From an uncultured Candidatus Saccharibacteria bacterium (GTDB lineage: Bacteria > Patescibacteriota > 4484-211 > JAGQKX01): a DNA stretch of 64,000 bases. Shown here one piece after another: positions 33,620 to 42,517 of the stretch (positions are counted from its first letter, which is position 1; each line of letters starts with the position of its first letter). The translations under genes and the position numbers were made by a program. Under the pieces are notes generated by a model. The model was not told the DNA's origin. It searched no databases and worked only from the letters and a program-made list of their open reading frames with translations. The DNA is taken from contig CAYMOT010000001.1 in NCBI GenBank assembly GCA_964392315.1, positions 359,318-423,317 on the forward strand, read 5' to 3'.

Positions 33620-34531
33620 ATGCAACATTACCGAAATAAGGGGTTTACTATTATTGAAGTGTTAGTGGGAGTATGCGTATTTGTGGTCATCGGTACCGTC
33701 GGCTACATGCTTTTCAATAAGCCAACGGCTAACGAAAGTAATCAGACAAGTCCACTTGTAAAGGCCTCACCAACCATACAGGATTCTATTTCTCTTGAAG
33801 AAGTTCGGTGGCAAAGAAATAGTTCGAATGAATGGAGTGCAGGCGGTGAGAAGCCACCTGAGTGTCCGGTGCCATTGTTAACACAGAGTCCTGTTGATGT
33901 GACGAAGGCCACGGCAGTACTGTATCCTGGGCAATACAGGGGATCGCAATATAAAGCCCATGGTGGTTTTCGGTTTGACAACCAAGAGACAAATAGTGTT
34001 GAAGTAGTTCTACCTATGGATGCGGTGTTGACTGAGGCAGCTCGCTATATAGAAGCAGGGGAAGTCCAGTATCTGTTCACGTTTGTTCATCCGTGTGGCA
34101 TTATGTTGCGTTTTGATCATTTGCTCACACTTACGCCGGAGTTCGCCGCAATTGCTGAAACCCTTCCGGAGCCCAAAGTAGATGATTCAAGAGGAACCTT
34201 TTTTGATGAAACACTACCGTTTAAAAAAGGTACCATGATTGCGACAGCAGTAGGTTTCAGCAATCCTCTCAATGTGAGCGTGGATTTTGGGTTATATGAC
34301 CTTCGTGCGCAAAACCAGATAAGTAAAAATACTACTTGGGCAGCTTTACACGTTAACGAAAAGAGTCAAGCCTATTATGCGATGTGTTGGCTTGATGCAT
34401 TACCTGTCTTAGACAAGGAGATGGTACAAAAGATTTTGCCATCATCAACTGACTCTAAGAGTGCTAGTGACTATTGTACGGATGCTGCAGGTGGGACTAC
34501 GCTCAATTATAACAGTGGCAAACCGGTGTGA
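33620..34531 (+). CDS. type IV pilin / pseudopilin-like protein with a large C-terminal globular domain
   Basis: Class III signal peptide: basic leader MQHYRNKG, then cleavage-site G|FTIIE with Glu at +5 and a hydrophobic helix. A ~270-aa C-terminal domain of unknown fold follows. Confidence 0.55.
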   Translation: MQHYRNKGFTIIEVLVGVCVFVVIGTVGYMLFNKPTANESNQTSPLVKASPTIQDSISLEEVRWQRNSSNEWSAGGEKPPECPVPLLTQSPVDVTKATAVLYPGQYRGSQYKAHGGFRFDNQETNSVEVVLPMDAVLTEAARYIEAGEVQYLFTFVHPCGIMLRFDHLLTLTPEFAAIAETLPEPKVDDSRGTFFDETLPFKKGTMIATAVGFSNPLNVSVDFGLYDLRAQNQISKNTTWAALHVNEKSQAYYAMCWLDALPVLDKEMVQKILPSSTDSKSASDYCTDAAGGTTLNYNSGKPV

Positions 34532-34537
34532 GTAGAT

Positions 34538-35422
34538 TTAATAGGTGTACAGTACTTCTAAGTGGCTGGTCGTTTCATTCGAATAAAGGCCTAGTATTTG
34601 AGAGCTATTGGTGTGATTTTGTATTCGGGGGTTTTTTGTGCTGACGTTTTGCATTGTCTTGATAAATATAGCTAATGCACTTGGCGAGTCGGTATATTCG
34701 TTACCAAGCTTTATAATCGTTTCATAATCAAAATTATTAATAAATTGTATTGTTTGTTCGTCATACATTTCAGTTTTGTGTGGATATTGATAGTGTGAAA
34801 AATCAAATGCTCCTACAACCAAAACGTCTGAATCTTTGGCGTACTGTGTTAATACAGCTGCGGTCTCTTCTATTTGTGTTACGTCCAATCCATTCTTAAT
34901 GACTAAGGGAACTACAGAGGCAGAGGGGAGATAGTGTGCGATATACGGTAGAATTGCGGTAATGCCGTGTTCGTTTTGTATTATTTTTGTATCTAATGTA
35001 ACGAATTCCTGTGAGACAAACGGTGCGAGAACTGCTTGATTCGTCTTGATATTCCCCCGAGAGGTTTCAAAAATACTATCACTAGAAATAATATCTGTTG
35101 AACCTGCAGTAAAATGGTTGGGAGCTAATAAGATTATTGTATGGATTTTTTCACTCGCAATTCTTCCAAAAAAGTCAGCAATAAGGCGTCCCGCAATGGT
35201 ATGGTGGGGCACTATTCCACCTTTAATACAACATTCTGAAGTTGTGTTTTGTGTCTCGTTCACCGCTTGGTAAAAACTACCTTGATCTAACGTGGGAATA
35301 TGTATGATCTCCTGTAACGAGCTTCCAGCGCCAAGTACAGCGTCTTCCCTGTGAGGGTTTTCCTGTACATGAACGAAAATAACTGTTCCTATGAATGCAG
35401 CGAATAATAGATAGAATTTCAT
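34538..35422 (-). CDS. secreted/membrane-anchored MEMO1-family (AmmeMemoRadiSam protein B-like) protein
   Basis: N-terminal signal/TM, then ..KGGIVPHHTIAG.., ..ILLAPNHF.., ..HGITAILPY.. and ..DFSHYQ.. matching MEMO1-family motifs. There is a 4-nt overlap with the upstream A2M gene. Confidence 0.5.
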   Translation of the reverse strand: MKFYLLFAAFIGTVIFVHVQENPHREDAVLGAGSSLQEIIHIPTLDQGSFYQAVNETQNTTSECCIKGGIVPHHTIAGRLIADFFGRIASEKIHTIILLAPNHFTAGSTDIISSDSIFETSRGNIKTNQAVLAPFVSQEFVTLDTKIIQNEHGITAILPYIAHYLPSASVVPLVIKNGLDVTQIEETAAVLTQYAKDSDVLVVGAFDFSHYQYPHKTEMYDEQTIQFINNFDYETIIKLGNEYTDSPSALAIFIKTMQNVSTKNPRIQNHTNSSQILGLYSNETTSHLEVLYTY

Positions 35423-38400
35423 CGAGGTTTAATTAGTATAGAGGTGCTCTTTCCTATTGCTCTATCTGATAGTACCTTGTCAGACTGAAATACCGTACCG
35501 TCAAAGACGTAGGTCCCGGGGGATGATACACGCGCGTAGTAGATGAGGGTGCCTGATGCCGTTCTGTTTGTGCTTGTCACCGGCACGCAATAATAAACAG
35601 CGTTTTCATCAATTCTGTAAGGATAGATTTGATCATTTGGAATATAGCCATAGTCACGATATGAGCGAGAAACTGCTTTAAGTCCTGATGGCAAGTAATC
35701 GACAACTGAGTAGCATCCTTCATTGCCGTCTTCTATACGATAGGGAATCTCAACACGCACAATATTGTCTTCATAAATTTCTTTTGAATCCTGTTTTGTG
35801 CTATCACCAGCAAATATGGCACGTTCAATTTTGGTAATATGGGTGTCATTAGGTTGCTGGAAAGCGCTGGCCCATTCTAATGTTGCTCCGACATCGCCTG
35901 AGATATCCTTAAATACAACCTGTGGTGCTTGGTCAGGTTGCACCACAAACGCATGTACTGCTCCATTCGCCAGTTCTATTGCATACTCGGTGCCATCAAG
36001 AACATACGTAACCCTTGAAGGCTCTGTGGATAGGTTGGGTACCTTTTTCATTAGGTAGAAGAGTGATTCGAGCTGTGTTGTGGCGTCATTTGATTGGTAT
36101 TCGGTAATATATTGAAACATTCCTTCCGCACGCGGATCGTCGAGTATGGTACCTACGATCATTGCAAGTGCAGTGCTGGTTATTGATGTATCTTGTGAAT
36201 CACCTGAAATTATTCGTATGTATGGTGTGGCTTCTTCGCCATGCTTTTCTAGTATATCTTTGTATTCTGTATAACCTCGCTCAAAATCTCCCAATATTGC
36301 AAGCCCAATAACAAGTTGCAAGCGTTGGTCGATAGAGAGGTCAAGATTATCAAGTGCGGTATAGACTTCCTGTAATACTGGTTCATTGAGTGCAGCTGAA
36401 CCGAGAAGTGACGATGTTAGTTCGTCATATGATGAGCGCTCTCTTATCCTGAAACCTTCAAAATAAGCAGAGAGTGCGGTACGGTCAAATTTATCTGCTG
36501 CAACAACGGCTAATCTTGCAGATACTATTGGGTCAGGTGCGCCATATGGTAGGAGTGCAATACCATCTTGTTCATATTCACCAGATGTGAACGGTGATTC
36601 TGGTAAATTTGCATTGAAATGTGCGTTGAGCTGTTCTCGGGCCAGGTTACGGACCAAGGCATAGTCAACACGTTCGTTCTGTAGCCATGCCAAATAATTG
36701 AGTTCAGCATAATAGCGATTACGTTGGGCATTTGCGAGTGTTACGGTTGTAGGTTGCTGAATATTTTCTAACCGAGTGTCTGGTGTGATCGGAATATCAG
36801 TAATATTTTTTTGATACGTCCGTGAATGAAGAACCTCAAAGGTTCGCATGACCGTATCCGAACCTTTTTCAGTACGAGCCTCAACGGTCAGCTGATGGTT
36901 CCCTATCGTTAATTCGGGAAGTTGTATCAGGACTTGCTCAAAAGCTTTTTGGGTGTATTCATGGGGGGAATCCCAGCCGAGTGATGGGATACTTACCGAA
37001 TATTTTATTTCATCATTGGCAGTTAGGGCGCTTCCAAACGTACGCAGTGATATGCTAGGGGCATCTCCGATGACATAGGTGTTATTCATGGATGGCTGCA
37101 CAAAGACTGGTTTTGTTGTGTATACCAAAGACTTTCCGGTGCCAACCAAGAGATCATTGGTTACGCCATGGTAGGTGAGCCTCCACTGTGTTAGGTTATC
37201 TGGTAATGCAAATTTTGCAATTCCTTTGCCGGTGTTATTGGTCGTTACTGAACCAAAAAATGGTGTGTCAACAAAAACACTTCGCGTACCATCCTTGCTG
37301 TTATGGACGTAGATATTGTTTGCAATAAATGTATGGTTCTTTTCAATATGAAGATTATAGACGGTAAATGTGCCATATTCTTTTCGTATTGAGGTTATAG
37401 TCACTGGTTTGCCGTTGCTATCTATGAGCGAATCGCCTATTTTTGCTGATCCAATAGGCATCCATGAATTATTGATAAATACAACATGTTCAGGGGTAAC
37501 CTTGAGATGTTCGTTTATAACCAATATCTGAGAAACCGTATGTACATCAACTCCCGTTACGGTATCCTCGATCAGTCCGTTCTCCCGCGACGCTCCGAAA
37601 GTAAATATCGTATCGCCAGTTTGTATATCTTTAATAGGCTTTGTTTGAGTAGGCGATATCGCTATTGGTGTGTCACCTGTAAAACACGCTGCTCCCATTT
37701 CTCCTGCAGATCTGTCGAGGGGATATTGGTGTGTGGCATATGAAAAAGAAATACCAGAATCCACCGTTTGGTAGATGTCGCTCACAGGTTGAGTATACTG
37801 TTCACTTACGGCAAAAACTGCTTCATCCACGACGCTAAAATTAACCAGTGCTGGCACTCCGATGCCTCCTGCATTTTTGGTTTGAATGTCTAAGACGACT
37901 TCCTCACGAGGGCCGTAGGTGCTTTTCTGTGGCTTTACATCGATAGAAAGGGTTCTGGATTCTTGGTTAACTCGTACTGAATCATCCATCACGCGATACG
38001 TCGTACCGTCAAAATATATTACTACTATAGTGATGTTGGGTAGATCTTTTTCCGAGTACGTGAAGCTATATTCTGGTGAAGATGATAAGCGAATATCGCG
38101 AATACCTCTTTGTGCCTTAATGTAGAGGAATTTTTTAGTACCTGTATCGGTCATTGGCGCGCCATCCTTGAGGGCAGCTAGGGTAACATCCTCTCCGATT
38201 GTGTACCCTTCTTGTTGACCTTGTTGGTTCTTATGATGGAGAGAATAACCATCCTGCGAATAAAAAGTATCATACCGTGACCAGTTATAGGCGGTCGTTG
38301 CTTCTCTATCAATCCGGCCTTGTGCATCGGTTACACTAAAGGAGATTTCGTACCACACATCCGGAATAAAGGTGCGGCTGTATTCTACAATACCAGCCGA

Positions 38401-40791
38401 ATTAGTTGGCCGTGTAAGCGATTCAACCGTCTTACTCACTGTATCATATCGATATTTTTTTACTACCTTTTTAGATACAAAATCGTAGTATTGCCCATCT
38501 TCTTTTTTTTCATAGTGCATTTCTTTGACGGTGATCGCGACATTCACGGGTGTATCGGGGTTCTTCCTATATGAGCTGCCAGCATTGTACGCTGCTACAT
38601 CTATCTCAGAAACGGTCGCGCTGGCTAGAAAGGAAGAATTATCTGGATAGGTAACAGTTGTTGAAACGTCGTATTCGGGACCGAACACAGTGATCGGCGC
38701 ACTCGCCTGAATTTCTGCCTCTTCGCTCAGTCGAGGTCTAATCTTCAGAATTTCTTCAGAAGGATAGTATGTACTGGCGTCATAAGTTGGGGTAAAAGGG
38801 AAAGAAAATGTACCACTCTTGTCTGCTTTTATATCGGTATTATTATACGTAAGTTCGAGGCCGGCCACCGGTGCTCCATTATAAAACTGAGCTTCACCGG
38901 TAAACTGTACTGTATCTCCCGCGAAAACACCTTTTCTGTCAGCTTGTAGCGATACGGTGTACGAAGGCTTCGTGTATGGTTTTATATGGATATACTGGGT
39001 ACGTATTCTTTGCTCACCAACAGTAAGTTCTACATAATAATAGCCGGGTGATACGTTTCGTAAGAGAAGGCTTCCTTCAAATGTTCCAAAAGGGCTAAAT
39101 GTTAGATCATTTTCTTGAAGAATAGCGGAATCCTGTGATCGTACGAGCCTGATATGTGCGTTTGTCGGCGAGTTTACTACATCACGATGCTTAAGTATTC
39201 CCCAGTAGTTAACAGTGTCGGATTGCTGATAAATCGGTTTGTCGACATATACATACGACCAATACTCTGAGTTCGTTGCCCAATACGTATGTATATCCTC
39301 AAAGGCACGGTTTTCGCCGTAGTAGGCTTGGTTAGAGGGTACTACCAGGGTTTGGCCTTCATGTTTAATGAGTAAATAGTGTAGTTTTGTAGTATCTGCT
39401 AGTAATACATTAGAGTCGAAGCTAAGGAGACCTTCACTATTGGTGCTTCCCACAGACGTGGTTGGAAGTACGGTTACCTGTGCTCCGCTGACTGGCTGTT
39501 GTGTATCGGTGGTATTAAGCCAGAGGTGTGATGTGTTTTTTGCTATTGTGTGATATGCCGTGAGAGTAGAAACCTGTATTAATACGGAACTCGTAAAATG
39601 TTCGTTTCGTGCAATTGCCAGATATTGGCCTTGTGGCAGTGGCTCGGGAAAGAGTACATATCCTTGATATTGTCCGTATTGAATGTCGCCGGTAAAAGAA
39701 GCAATTCTTTCAAGATCGGTGGTGTCTGGTTGATACACATCCCACTGCTTCGCGCTCCACGTTGGTATAGTGTCACGTCGTGTTATCTCTGCCAGGAATA
39801 GGTCTGTCGATGGGTATTTATATACTTCGACTTGGAGAGAAGTAGGACGGTCCTCACGGTAATAGTAGGAATACACACCGATTGCAGGTTCAGTGCCTGG
39901 TGCTATCTCAACTGATTGTTTGGAAAAATTAAAATAGTATTTGGAGTTGTCAGTATTTTCATCGTAATTCGATGTGGTTTCGAATCTGATTACCACATCT
40001 TCTCCGAGTTTTTCGTCACTTCCTCTAATGGGGAGGTCGCCTTTTATAGTAAATGTGTACACAGTATTCGGCTCAAGTTTTGCTGGGATAAAGACAGCGG
40101 TCTTCTGGTGTCGTTCAAATACAAGTTCAGTGGTAGGCGAGATGCTGACGTATGGTAACGGATCATTGAAGTTTTCATGACTAAAGGTCACTTCTATTCC
40201 TGAGTTTACGGGTACGTGCGTTGCCTGGTTTCGAGGAATGCTCGTTACTACCGAAAAACTGTTTTTTGTCTGGAATGCCCATTTATACGGAATGGTGTCG
40301 TCGACTCCGGCAACTACTCCCTGGGTTAACGAAAAAGTGTATACCGCGTTTTCCCTGAGGTGCTCCTGCGGTGCGACCAGTACCTCATACGGTGTTTTTT
40401 GTGTAATCTCCAGTGGTATTTCAGGTGATACAGAAAGCGATTGTTTAATCACCTCAAGTGGCAATTCCTTTTCGCTTGCTAACACAAACGTGGAGTCCAT
40501 TTCTACACCAATTGAATCACTATATTCAGCTTTCATTTCAATTTCACGGTTGGAAAGTAAGATTGGCTTTCCGTGTAATGTGACTAGCGGTGTTTCAGAT
40601 GCGGTGTTTTGCCTGTTCAAGGCATACGATAGGACGAGGACGCTGGTGAGTCCTACGATGATGAAAATGCCAAAGACCATGGGGGCGGGTAGTCTTTTAA
40701 CTTTTGTAATTATTTGTGTGAGTTTCTCGCGAAGCGGGGATCTTCTTGTTTCGGGTGTTGTAGGAGCAGGTTCGGGAAGTGTAGGATCCAT
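35419..40791 (-). CDS. membrane-anchored alpha-2-macroglobulin-family protein, thioester-less, interrupted by a mini-intein
   Basis: 1790 aa with an N-terminal cytoplasmic tail plus a TM anchor. Contains the A2M-domain signature ..VFVDTPFFGSV..GKGIAKFALPDNLTQWRL.. (compare RSDFRDTAFW...LPDSLTTWR). The thioester position reads ..LLPYGAPDP.. instead of PYGCGEQ. An in-frame Hint domain lies at aa 1036-1164. Confidence 0.7.
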   Translation of the reverse strand: MDPTLPEPAPTTPETRRSPLREKLTQIITKVKRLPAPMVFGIFIIVGLTSVLVLSYALNRQNTASETPLVTLHGKPILLSNREIEMKAEYSDSIGVEMDSTFVLASEKELPLEVIKQSLSVSPEIPLEITQKTPYEVLVAPQEHLRENAVYTFSLTQGVVAGVDDTIPYKWAFQTKNSFSVVTSIPRNQATHVPVNSGIEVTFSHENFNDPLPYVSISPTTELVFERHQKTAVFIPAKLEPNTVYTFTIKGDLPIRGSDEKLGEDVVIRFETTSNYDENTDNSKYYFNFSKQSVEIAPGTEPAIGVYSYYYREDRPTSLQVEVYKYPSTDLFLAEITRRDTIPTWSAKQWDVYQPDTTDLERIASFTGDIQYGQYQGYVLFPEPLPQGQYLAIARNEHFTSSVLIQVSTLTAYHTIAKNTSHLWLNTTDTQQPVSGAQVTVLPTTSVGSTNSEGLLSFDSNVLLADTTKLHYLLIKHEGQTLVVPSNQAYYGENRAFEDIHTYWATNSEYWSYVYVDKPIYQQSDTVNYWGILKHRDVVNSPTNAHIRLVRSQDSAILQENDLTFSPFGTFEGSLLLRNVSPGYYYVELTVGEQRIRTQYIHIKPYTKPSYTVSLQADRKGVFAGDTVQFTGEAQFYNGAPVAGLELTYNNTDIKADKSGTFSFPFTPTYDASTYYPSEEILKIRPRLSEEAEIQASAPITVFGPEYDVSTTVTYPDNSSFLASATVSEIDVAAYNAGSSYRKNPDTPVNVAITVKEMHYEKKEDGQYYDFVSKKVVKKYRYDTVSKTVESLTRPTNSAGIVEYSRTFIPDVWYEISFSVTDAQGRIDREATTAYNWSRYDTFYSQDGYSLHHKNQQGQQEGYTIGEDVTLAALKDGAPMTDTGTKKFLYIKAQRGIRDIRLSSSPEYSFTYSEKDLPNITIVVIYFDGTTYRVMDDSVRVNQESRTLSIDVKPQKSTYGPREEVVLDIQTKNAGGIGVPALVNFSVVDEAVFAVSEQYTQPVSDIYQTVDSGISFSYATHQYPLDRSAGEMGAACFTGDTPIAISPTQTKPIKDIQTGDTIFTFGASRENGLIEDTVTGVDVHTVSQILVINEHLKVTPEHVVFINNSWMPIGSAKIGDSLIDSNGKPVTITSIRKEYGTFTVYNLHIEKNHTFIANNIYVHNSKDGTRSVFVDTPFFGSVTTNNTGKGIAKFALPDNLTQWRLTYHGVTNDLLVGTGKSLVYTTKPVFVQPSMNNTYVIGDAPSISLRTFGSALTANDEIKYSVSIPSLGWDSPHEYTQKAFEQVLIQLPELTIGNHQLTVEARTEKGSDTVMRTFEVLHSRTYQKNITDIPITPDTRLENIQQPTTVTLANAQRNRYYAELNYLAWLQNERVDYALVRNLAREQLNAHFNANLPESPFTSGEYEQDGIALLPYGAPDPIVSARLAVVAADKFDRTALSAYFEGFRIRERSSYDELTSSLLGSAALNEPVLQEVYTALDNLDLSIDQRLQLVIGLAILGDFERGYTEYKDILEKHGEEATPYIRIISGDSQDTSITSTALAMIVGTILDDPRAEGMFQYITEYQSNDATTQLESLFYLMKKVPNLSTEPSRVTYVLDGTEYAIELANGAVHAFVVQPDQAPQVVFKDISGDVGATLEWASAFQQPNDTHITKIERAIFAGDSTKQDSKEIYEDNIVRVEIPYRIEDGNEGCYSVVDYLPSGLKAVSRSYRDYGYIPNDQIYPYRIDENAVYYCVPVTSTNRTASGTLIYYARVSSPGTYVFDGTVFQSDKVLSDRAIGKSTSILIKPR
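37300..37686 (-). other. mini-intein (129 aa, no endonuclease domain) inside the A2M-like gene
   Basis: Begins with Cys (..GAA|CFTGDTPIAI..; block A). Block B is ..KVTPEHVVF... Blocks F/G are ..VYNLHIEKNHTFIANNIYVHN|S.. (terminal His-Asn, Ser at +1). The flanking exteins join into a continuous A2M alignment. Coordinates were verified codon by codon. Confidence 0.65.
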
Positions 40792-40870: not shown

Positions 40871-40944
40871 TGCGGGATCGTCTAATGGCAGGACGCCTGA
40901 CTCTGGATCAGGTAATCTAGGTTCGAGCCCTAGTCCCGCAGCCA
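40871..40944 (+). tRNA. tRNA-Gln (anticodon CUG) with encoded CCA
   Basis: Manual cloverleaf: acceptor UGCGGGA/UCCCGCA (the U1-A72 pair typical of bacterial tRNA-Gln), U8, D-stem GUCU/GGAC, G18G19, anticodon stem CCUGA/UCAGG, loop CUCUGGA (U33, anticodon CUG 40903..40905, G37), T-arm CUAGG-UUCGAGC-CCUAG, discriminator G73, CCA. Confidence 0.85.
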
Positions 40945-40960
40945 GGCGTATAATCACTAC

Positions 40961-42517
40961 ATGAAAAATAATGGTTATCGTATTGTTAAGTACTCTCTCA
41001 TTGCCCTCGCGGTTGCCGGCCTTTTGGATTCACTGTATCTTACGTACGAGCATTTCAGCGGTACGATCCCTCCTTGTTCCGTAGGAGGACTGTTTGATAA
41101 TTGTGGTACCGTGCTTCGCAGCGAGTATGCTGAAATAATTGGAATACCAGTTGCGCTGTTTGGTGTTCTCCACTATTTCTTGTTAACTTCAATGTTGACT
41201 CTTGGTTATGCGTATGCACAGCAGTGGGCAATAAGATTTGCATTGGTGCTAACCATGATTGGTTTTTTGGGGTCTGGGTATTTTGTATACATCCAATTGT
41301 TTGTTCTCCGTGCGTTATGTCTCTACTGTATGATTTCTGCGATTATTTCTTTAGTGCTTCTAGTTTTGGTATGGGGCTTTGAGAGAAGGGCACGTACAGA
41401 ACTTTTCGCAGGTATCGTTGCTAATTTTTACACAAAAGTACTGAAGAGAATATTCTTTCTTTTAGATCCTGAATATATCCACACGAAAATGGTTACGCAG
41501 GGAGAATTGCTCGGGAGGTCTCCACTAAGAGGAGTCCTTGCGTGGGGTCTTGCGTACAGACCAACATCTTTGGCACAGGAATTAGCGGGAATTACATTTC
41601 TTGCCCCCGTTGGACTTGCCGCTGGGTTTGACTATAATGCACAGCTAACGCAGATATTGCCGAGTATTGGCTTTGGGTTTCATACGATTGGAACGATCAC
41701 CGCGCAAGCCTGTGAAGGGAACCCAAAACCTCGCTTAGGAAGACTGCCACGTTCACAATCACTAATGGTAAATAAAGGATTTCGTAATCCAGGAGTCGGT
41801 GCAATCGTACGTCGTTTGCAGCCCTACACATTCTCAATTCCAGTTGGCATTAGTATAGGACGAACAAATAGTGATGCACTCAATGACGTAGATGATGCTA
41901 TCGCCGATATATTGCAGGCATTCCGGACGATTGATGCGGGTTCACTTACACATGCATATTATGAATTGAACATCAGTTGTCCTAACCTAAAAGGAAGTGT
42001 CAGTTTTTACGAACCCGAATCTTTGCATAGGCTTTTATCTGCAATCAAGACAGTGCACCTCGAAAGACCCGTATTTGTAAAAATGCCAATAGAAAAATCT
42101 GACGATGAATTTTCGGCAATGCTTGAAGTAATTACTGCCTCTCAGGTGGTATCGGGAGTGATTATTGGGAATCTCCAGAAAAATCGGCAGGATGCTTCGT
42201 TTGATATCAACGAAGTATTGCGTTTCCCAAAGGGTAATTTCAGCGGCAAACCTACGTATATACGCTCGAATGAGTTGATCAAACTTACCTATCGACAATA
42301 TAAAGACACCTTGCCTATCATTGGATGTGGAGGGGTGTTTTCAGCGCAAGATGCGTATACAAAAATTACGTTGGGCGCCTCACTAGTTCAGCTTATTACT
42401 GGACTTGTGTACAGAGGACCGCAACTGGTAGCTCAGATTAATCTCGGGTTGGAAGCCCTGCTAAAGAAAAATGGTTATGAGCATATTGCTCAAGCAATAG
42501 GTTCAGCACATACGTAA
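40961..42517 (+). CDS. pyrD: VKOR-domain / dihydroorotate dehydrogenase (quinone, class 2) fusion protein
   Basis: The N-terminal ~150 aa has VKOR topology and motifs: loop Cys pair ..PPCSVGGLFDNCGTV.., ..GIPVALFGVLHY.. and a TM-embedded CxxC (CLYCMISA). The C-terminal ~360 aa is DHODH class 2: ..FLLDPEYIHT.., ..GLAAGFDYN.., ..NISCPN.. and ..IIGCGGV... Confidence 0.7.
   Translation: MKNNGYRIVKYSLIALAVAGLLDSLYLTYEHFSGTIPPCSVGGLFDNCGTVLRSEYAEIIGIPVALFGVLHYFLLTSMLTLGYAYAQQWAIRFALVLTMIGFLGSGYFVYIQLFVLRALCLYCMISAIISLVLLVLVWGFERRARTELFAGIVANFYTKVLKRIFFLLDPEYIHTKMVTQGELLGRSPLRGVLAWGLAYRPTSLAQELAGITFLAPVGLAAGFDYNAQLTQILPSIGFGFHTIGTITAQACEGNPKPRLGRLPRSQSLMVNKGFRNPGVGAIVRRLQPYTFSIPVGISIGRTNSDALNDVDDAIADILQAFRTIDAGSLTHAYYELNISCPNLKGSVSFYEPESLHRLLSAIKTVHLERPVFVKMPIEKSDDEFSAMLEVITASQVVSGVIIGNLQKNRQDASFDINEVLRFPKGNFSGKPTYIRSNELIKLTYRQYKDTLPIIGCGGVFSAQDAYTKITLGASLVQLITGLVYRGPQLVAQINLGLEALLKKNGYEHIAQAIGSAHT

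Follow-up and report, generated by a model that had tools for sequence, protein, structure and literature searches.

What does an autoprocessing domain do inside an exported protein of the alpha-2-macroglobulin (A2M) superfamily? What arms A2M, complement and TEP proteins is a cut in one specific loop, the bait of A2M, made by an external protease. The question is raised by a 64,000-nucleotide stretch of DNA (the window) from an uncultured Candidatus Saccharibacteria bacterium (contig CAYMOT010000001.1), in which the gene of a membrane-anchored A2M-like protein of 1790 amino acids (aa) contains a Hint domain of 129 aa. An initial annotation had described this segment as a canonical mini-intein, and had missed that it lies in the bait-equivalent loop. 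By alignment, the Hint sits at the C-terminal end of this loop, and its conservation there across many lineages of the candidate phyla radiation (CPR) suggests that the protein cuts or re-ligates its own bait. We consider it probable, if far from certain, that an autoprocessing module resembling the A-type bacterial intein-like (BIL) domains has become fixed in the bait loop, making the bait self-processing. Neither component is a new family. The novelty is that an A-type-BIL-like domain holds a fixed, conserved place in the bait loop of one thioester-less subfamily of A2M-like proteins, accompanied by a junction lysine coupled to it. No earlier description of a Hint domain, intein or BIL in connection with A2M or CPR was found in the literature.

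The Hint domain and its place in the host protein

The segment is a genuine Hint domain. Translation of positions 37300-37686 on the minus strand gives exactly 129 aa (CFTGDTPIAI...TPEH...VYNLHIEKNHTFIANNIYVHN), flanked by ...GEMGAA on the N side and by SKDGTRSVFVDTPFF...LPDNLTQWRL on the C side. Both marks of the HINT superfamily are present, a profile match and a block A nucleophile accompanied by a TxxH motif in block B. The segment alone scores above the Pfam gathering thresholds of Pretoxin HINT (PT-HINT, PF07591; 34.3 against 27.7 bits) and Vint (30.2 against 27), and the model TIGR01443 (intein_Cterm) reaches 21.4, above its cut-off of 15.6. These matches bear out the 129-aa Hint with all splice-junction residues that the initial annotation had reported. 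In the numbering of the open reading frame (ORF), Cys1 is aa 1036 (37684-37686), block B reads T1099-P-E-H1102, block F contains VYN (N1146), and the domain ends in His1163-Asn1164 (Asn codon 37300-37302), with Ser1165 at position +1. No second Hint domain was found elsewhere in the 64-kb window. A foreign origin by composition was rejected, as the GC content at third codon positions (GC3) is 0.349 against 0.378 +/- 0.044, within one standard deviation; the overall GC content is lower (0.388 against 0.434 +/- 0.017) because of amino-acid composition, GC3 being ordinary. The Hint and the two linkers around it are:

37300..37686, minus strand: Hint domain, A-type-BIL-like, aa 1036-1164 (Pfam, NCBIfam and PDB matches; 72 orthologous domains)
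37687..37740, minus strand: flexible linker on the N side of the bait-equivalent loop, aa 1018-1035, YATHQYPLDRSAGEMGAA, with Ala(-1) as its last residue (predicted local distance difference test, pLDDT, <50 at model residues 169-186; Gly-rich AExGG consensus in homologues)
37285..37299, minus strand: C-side linker SKDGT, aa 1165-1169, followed by the invariant R1170 (site mapping; Ser+1 at 37297-37299, Lys+2 at 37294-37296)

Comparison with homologues revealed that the Hint is a precise insertion. Among 121 homologues from a whole-protein search, roughly two dozen carry it and are 1720-1905 aa long, while the Hint-less homologues, chiefly from Bacillota and Chloroflexota, measure about 1600-1720 aa. 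The Hint stands out in the alignment as a clean block of 129 aa that separates ...AExGG from (D/E)(K/G)G..R..F.D, with flanks continuous with those of the Hint-less homologues, a precision far beyond chance. When the Hint is subtracted, the loop from the conserved His1021 to Arg1170 has a median of 20 residues in proteins with and without it alike. The two exteins therefore rejoin into a continuous A2M alignment, as the initial annotation had stated, and the segment is an insertion rather than an ordinary A2M region. In an AlphaFold model of aa 850-1340 of the host (pLDDT 86.6), the Hint is folded at high pLDDT, and its flanks (aa 1018-1035 and 1166-1169) fall below 50.

The insertion site was mapped with a profile of the Hint-less homologues. 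The invariant R-x-x-F-x-D...LPDNLTSWR of this profile aligns to residues 731-806 of human A2M (VRKYFPETWIW...PDTITEWK), and its N-terminal part to MG5/MG6 of C5; Arg1170 of the window protein is therefore the counterpart of human Arg732. The disordered bait of the human protein comprises Pro690-Thr728, and Glu729-Arg732 joins it to the next strand of MG6, a connection that "must be cleaved" for the expanded form to give way to the compact one (PMC9181621). The Asn1164|Ser1165 junction is located 5 residues upstream of Arg1170. Like the A2M bait and the beta/alpha site of C3, C4 and C5, the Hint site is a disordered loop between the A2M_BRD and A2M Pfam domains. We take the beta/alpha processing site of the complement proteins to be the same topological position, with which the C5 alignment is consistent. 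Cutting at this site produces a two-chain molecule or triggers the conformational change in the characterised members of the family. In these known cases an external protease (a prey protease, furin or a convertase) does the cutting, whereas here a built-in Hint is positioned for it, in a protein without a thioester.

The host protein has the MG-domain architecture with A2M_BRD and A2M that defines the A2M superfamily, and its features are:

35419..40791, minus strand: host gene, encoding the 1790-aa membrane-anchored, thioester-less alpha-2-macroglobulin-like protein (Pfam domains, Foldseek, 121 homologues)
40618..40686, minus strand: N-terminal transmembrane anchor, aa 36-58, APMVFGIFIIVGLTSVLVLSYAL (top Kyte-Doolittle 19-residue window)
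37810..38211, minus strand: A2M bait-region domain, Pfam A2M_BRD, aa 861-994, N-terminal part of MG5/MG6 (47.6 bits)
37045..37257, minus strand: Pfam A2M domain, aa 1179-1249, C-terminal strands of MG6 plus MG7, with the LPDNLTQWR motif (Pfam; aligned to human A2M 731-806)
36661..36678, minus strand: conserved C-terminal motif, consensus G-x-R-[LVI]-D-Q, here NERVDY (family alignment; R1374 invariant)

Pfam recognises Big_5 and MG2 in addition to these two domains, and the A2M_BRD domain aligns by profile to residues of about 511-628 of C5. A Foldseek search with the model retrieved CD109, C3/C4/C5, A2ML1, A2M, ECAM and Salmonella A2M at E of about 1e-13. Together with the translation, these matches uphold the initial description of an A2M-family gene interrupted just N-terminal to the A2M-domain motif. 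The description of the host as exported and membrane-anchored holds as well: seven basic residues precede the sole N-terminal transmembrane segment, from which the positive-inside rule predicts an N-in/C-out topology with the protein outside the cytoplasm. Equally, the host is thioester-less, as neither it nor 102 of 103 family members contain the CxEQ motif, and it has no Pfam match to the TED family. Its only cysteines are residues 1036, 1693 and 1735, so that Cys1036 is the sole Cys of the first 1690 residues. Within the C-terminal region, which in canonical A2Ms holds the TED, the most conserved motif is G-x-R-[LVI]-D-Q, which lacks Cys and hence a thioester; our guess is that it is the equivalent of the GCGEQ thioester position. 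Homologues bear generic database names ('Ig-like domain-containing', 'polymorphic toxin-type HINT domain-containing' or 'hypothetical'). For a CPR predator, membrane proteins with A2M domains have been proposed as a defence against host proteases (PMC8080830).

Conservation and affinities of the Hint

Scanning species-representative genomes recovered at least 80 loci, at least 29 of which have a Hint at the same site. The listed carriers belong to the Parcu-, Falkow-, Collier-, Peri/Peregrini-, Kerfeld-, Uhr-, Doudna-, Moranii- and Saccharibacteria, along with metagenome-assembled genomes (MAGs) labelled otherwise. The intein-free alleles that the initial annotation had proposed to look for exist, as Hint-less orthologues were found, including in some CPR lineages. 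Seven loci (L002, L003, L006, L007, L018, L021 and L036) are Hint-containing A2M-like genes in MAGs titled 'uncultured Pseudomonadales' or 'Gammaproteobacteria'; in a tree of the exteins, L002 and L003 stand beside Collierbacteria loci and the other five among Hint-containing sequences of CPR type. The taxonomy of these records may be wrong.

The species-representative loci and the representatives from an exhaustive profile search yielded 72 non-identical A2M-hosted Hint domains. Cys1 and the C-terminal His-Asn occur in all 72, and TxEH of block B and VYN of block F are conserved; in a 22-sequence alignment, C1 and the block B T and H are invariant. The domains are 129 aa long in 64 cases, 128 in 7 and 130 in one, with no endonuclease-sized variant among the 72, and residue -1 is Gly in 66 and Ala in 6. 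Mean pairwise identity is 44% for the Hint and 32% for the host, and the two co-vary (r = 0.86 overall; 0.58 for pairs below 45%). In the extein-only neighbour-joining tree (100 bootstraps), the window protein and P0001-P0004 form a clade with 100% support, sharing Ser+1 and Ala-1. One relative is 98% identical to the window protein, with 34 amino-acid differences and none inside the Hint; at 1 synonymous and 0 non-synonymous changes in the Hint, the differences are too few to inform on selection. This relative was found only in the Logan runs SRR15237800, SRR15237813 and SRR15237815, an exact-sequence look-up of the window protein found no record, and the best species-representative match among the matches listed has 32% identity. 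The Hint is a long-resident, vertically inherited element without an endonuclease, and is best read as a fixed part of one subfamily of membrane-anchored, thioester-less A2M-like proteins found mainly in Patescibacteria (CPR).

The residue after the Hint separates the family from class-1 inteins, in which a +1 nucleophile is conserved among orthologous insertions. Here, position +1 is Asp in 34 of the 72 domains, Glu in 18, Gln in 8, Ser in 6, Thr in 2, and Cys, Met, Ile and Ala in one each. Asp, Glu and Gln thus account for 60/72 (83%), while Ser, Thr and Cys account for 9/72 (12.5%), less than the 18% of Ser, Thr and Cys in the host; 63 of 72 lack the nucleophile, yet the window copy has Ser+1. 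The closest relatives, in turn, are not inteins with homing-endonuclease alleles. Against the PDB, the family profile best matches 2LWY, the A-type BIL4 of Clostridium thermocellum (E 1.4e-16, 64.3 bits), followed by BIL2 of Tetrahymena thermophila (6Y75/6TMM; 3e-15), which is also the best single-sequence PDB match to the window Hint (E 1e-6). The best true mini-intein, Mtu RecA, matches at 8.5e-9, weaker than 2LWY and BIL2 by about eight orders of magnitude (~10^8-fold). A block F/G signature, VYN..V..HTY...VHN, is common to the family profile and 2LWY, and two intein models stay under their cut-offs on the window segment (Pfam Intein_splicing, 26.6 against 35.8; TIGR01445, 16.7 against 24.5).

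Searched by word index, the Hint profile matched no more than 8 short fragments, which told little; an exhaustive search of representatives, used instead, gave 44,616 related Hint proteins, the top ones with 2-13 tandem Hints. The nearest relatives outside A2M hosts are tandem Hint arrays in surface-type proteins, which combine them with a pilin N-methylation signal or with PKD, Laminin_G/Laminin_G_3, Y_Y_Y, DUF7289 or Tim44-like domains. Nearly all of 239 complete Hints from non-A2M hosts have C1 and His-Asn; Lys makes up 66% of the +1 residues and nucleophiles 10%, the nucleophile being missing in 214 of the 239. The tandem BIL-like Hints, often back to back, occur in hundreds of proteins (P0129-P0273; for example P0129, with 13 stretches, P0139 and P0135).

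BILs are defined by the missing +1 nucleophile, with type A distinguished by a C-terminal His-Asn; type A BILs mostly yield cleavage products, and can splice by an alternative route in which Asn cyclisation is followed by attack of the freed amine on the N-terminal thioester (PMC4031507; PMC7664689). The A2M Hint has the N-terminal Cys and the C-terminal His-Asn of this type, and its sequence is closest to an established A-type BIL, 2LWY. Because of the +1 spectrum, the profile matches to 2LWY and BIL2, the sub-threshold intein models and the tandem-Hint relatives, it can be assigned on sequence to the A-type BIL/PT-HINT branch of the Hint superfamily. Like the A-type BILs (Amitai 2003, Dassa 2004 and Aranko 2013, via PMC4031507), the window Hint is a domain of about 130 aa with no endonuclease, in a secreted or surface protein; the +1 residue of A-type BILs is usually non-nucleophilic, as in the A2M-Hint family, and the window copy differs in its Ser+1. 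On the other hand, known BILs are described from hypervariable stretches of non-conserved, often secreted proteins (PMC7765530), whereas the A2M Hint occupies one fixed position across many phyla-level CPR lineages, in an orthologous, co-diverging, exported host, in a functionally defined loop and with a coupled Lys at +2/+3.

The coupling of this lysine to the Hint was unexpected. Lys is found within the first three C-extein residues (+2/+3; Lys1166 in the window) in 47/48 family members with the Hint and in 0/55 without it (103 members; Fisher p 9e-29, uncorrected for phylogeny). The thioester of BIL2 is resolved by the epsilon-amine of a lysine, giving an isopeptide (PMC8616854), and Lys is the commonest +1 residue in the tandem-Hint relatives. 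By analogy, the junction Lys may be an acceptor nucleophile, forming an isopeptide as in BIL2, or a catalytic helper. The conserved Lys of the A2M proteins, beside the C-terminal junction only when the Hint is present, invites this comparison. In contrast, BIL2 is a eukaryotic, Zn-activated domain located between ubiquitin-like domains (BUBL polyubiquitin locus), and its aligned region closes with His where the A2M Hint has His-Asn; it forms an isopeptide, which is only predicted for the A2M Hint.

The initial reading as a canonical mini-intein stands in part. A rival reading built on it would make the Hint a class-1 mini-intein and a neutral, selfish passenger without a host role, whose scarless Ser1165 splicing in this organism would restore a short loop identical to that of the Hint-less proteins. 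The window copy has every class-1 residue (Cys1, TPEH, His-Asn and Ser+1), and shares these residues and a precise insertion relative to Hint-less homologues with Mtu RecA, Npu DnaB and Spl DnaX. Ser+1 is kept in the window clade at 55-98% identity, intein_Cterm exceeds its cut-off, Hint-less orthologues occur in some CPR lineages, and the junction predicted after splicing, ...GAA-SKDG..., is similar to ...AEGG-EGG..., the empty site of Hint-less homologues. In addition, a BIL of M. magnetotacticum spliced after mutation of its +1 residue to Cys (PMC4031507). The family as a whole fits this picture poorly: apart from the non-nucleophilic +1 residues, the affinity of sequence and solved structures to BILs, the BIL-like VYN of block F and the sub-threshold models, there is no homing-endonuclease form at the site, the length is essentially invariant, the Lys at +2/+3 is strictly tied to the Hint, and the exported host carries it in a variable Gly-rich loop rather than in the conserved functional motif typical of inteins. 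A canonical mini-intein kept as a selfish passenger is therefore unlikely. The alternative that the initial annotation had itself offered, BIL-type autoprocessing with cleaved or branched forms, is better supported by the +1 spectrum and the matches to 2LWY and BIL2. Ser+1 is a clade-specific state on a BIL background, with which classical splicing is chemically possible.

A proposed self-processing bait and its alternatives

How a Hint in this loop might act can be outlined from the chemistry of the Hint family. The A2M-like protein would be exported via its N-terminal anchor (Sec), and the Hint would fold outside the cell. Cys1036 would then convert the Ala1035-Cys1036 bond into a thioester by an N-S acyl shift, and cyclisation of Asn1164 would cut the Asn1164-Ser1165 bond. 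Resolution of the thioester by water would give a two-chain protein held together by MG6 strands from both sides of the loop, as in C3/C4/C5. Resolution by the new alpha-amine would amount to BIL-type peptide ligation, and resolution by the epsilon-amine of Lys1166 to an isopeptide, as in BIL2. In the window clade, a branched ester at Ser1165 could additionally lead to classical splicing. Whichever route is taken, the bait loop would be processed by its own protein without an external protease. A cut at the C-terminal junction would leave a fresh N-terminus 5 residues ahead of the Arg732 equivalent, and would mimic a bait cut close to the trigger segment. The protein should tolerate a cut that is not followed by ligation, because the MG6 sandwich in this superfamily uses strands from both sides of the loop; this would account for a dispensable +1 nucleophile. 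There is precedent for Hint autopeptidases in secreted proteins (PMC3482391), and the concern of the initial annotation that splicing would have to occur before or during export is unnecessary, since this Hint subfamily is typically found in secreted proteins.

PT-HINT, the top Pfam family of the A2M Hint, likewise acts in exported proteins, where it lies directly upstream of a C-terminal toxin that it releases (PMC3482391). The A2M Hint differs in being followed by about 625 residues of A2M architecture (MG7, the TED-like region and a C-terminal domain). Release of a polymorphic toxin was accordingly rejected, as Pfam finds no toxin domain after the Hint, and what follows is the A2M domain and about 540 further residues.

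Several points weigh against a self-processing bait. Ser+1 in the window protein and its four closest relatives would permit clean classical splicing, and splicing and cleavage are indistinguishable from sequence. Known BILs reside in hypervariable regions of non-conserved proteins (PMC7765530), as opposed to the fixed orthologous site described here. The assembly of MG6 from strands on both flanks of the Hint is predicted by homology. The extein-only tree accommodates one gain with several losses as well as repeated gain, with bootstraps below 50%. Furthermore, purifying selection on the Hint is equally expected of a purely selfish intein, because failed excision could inactivate the host, and conservation alone is therefore no proof of a role that benefits the host.

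Two further proposals turn the thioester of the Hint outward. By analogy with BIL2 conjugation and with cholesterol transfer by Hedgehog, the Hint could be an ATP-independent, single-shot warhead, in which the thioester on the anchored N-terminal fragment, in the loop where proteases or partner proteins engage, would take the place of the lost A2M thioester, capture an amine of a foreign protein (a protease, or a surface protein of the cells on which these episymbiotic bacteria live) and tether that protein to the patescibacterial surface; we consider this quite unlikely. In a more general form, which is also very unlikely, the Hint would generate a thioester for intermolecular transfer, linking the N-terminal 1035-residue fragment to another molecule and replacing the lost thioester of the TED. 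The accepting amine or hydroxyl would then belong to an attacking protease, to a protein on the surface of a host cell or to material of the cell wall. This form draws on the absence of CxEQ from the family, on BIL2, whose N-extein becomes joined to lysines in other proteins (PMC8616854), on the Hedgehog Hint, which moves its N-extein to cholesterol (PMC7664689), on the location of the Hint in the loop where proteases engage A2Ms, and on the defensive role proposed for A2M-domain proteins in the CPR predator (PMC8080830). However, the invariant His-Asn and the coupled junction Lys favour an intramolecular resolution, and no acceptor-recognition region akin to the sterol-recognition region of Hedgehog was identified. 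Finally, that the Hint is catalytically dead and stays part of the mature protein with a structural or binding role is scarcely credible, for although Hint-fold domains can be co-opted for binding, Cys1, the block B Thr and His, the penultimate His and the terminal Asn are invariant across 72 diverged sequences, and Cys1036 is the only Cys in most of the chain.

If the Hint cuts or isopeptide-ligates the bait loop, the A2M superfamily would gain its first member that triggers itself, and the A2M Hint would clearly exemplify a BIL taken on for a specific task at one fixed position of an orthologous family, which has been an open question for BILs. If it only splices, it would still have an unusual intein host, exported and non-informational, and be of modest importance. 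A compact Hint family of 129 aa that tolerates Asp, Glu, Gln, Ser, Thr or Cys at +1 would be useful for protein engineering, and the A2M Hint gives a way into the surface biology of episymbiotic bacteria that have not been cultivated.

Genomic neighbourhood

Directly downstream of the A2M-like gene lies a second gene of the same strand:

34538..35422, minus strand: Memo-like gene (PF01875), 294 aa, N-terminal hydrophobic segment; 4-nt overlap with the stop of the A2M-like gene

A Memo-like gene occupies this place in 19/25 loci with the Hint and 32/41 without it, hence in 51 of the 66 informative loci listed (L001-L085). By this gene order, the A2M-like and Memo-like genes form a conserved two-gene operon module, independent of the Hint, in Patescibacteria, Chloroflexota and Bacillota. 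This arrangement differs from that of classical bacterial A2Ms, which have PBP1c or yfaS-type partners.

On the other side, a gene divergent from the A2M-like gene (40961-42517, plus strand) encodes a fusion of vitamin K epoxide reductase (VKOR), a disulfide-forming enzyme, with dihydroorotate dehydrogenase, and a tRNA gene (40871-40941) lies between the two. An ORF of 303 aa (33620-34531, plus strand) matched no Pfam family in the scan; its counterpart in the 98%-identical contigs has a faint match to N_methyl (prepilin-type), and the product may be a pilin-like protein. For a presumed patescibacterium, the window is rich in sensory and metabolic genes, with three histidine kinases (one dCache, one 7TM) and pyruvate kinase, as well as a PPDK/PEP-synthase-like enzyme, an alpha-amylase and Na+/H+ exchangers. 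The TypA protein of the window points to a probable patescibacterial origin, its closest named relatives, at 61-67% identity, being Patescibacteria (Collierbacteria and Woesebacteria).

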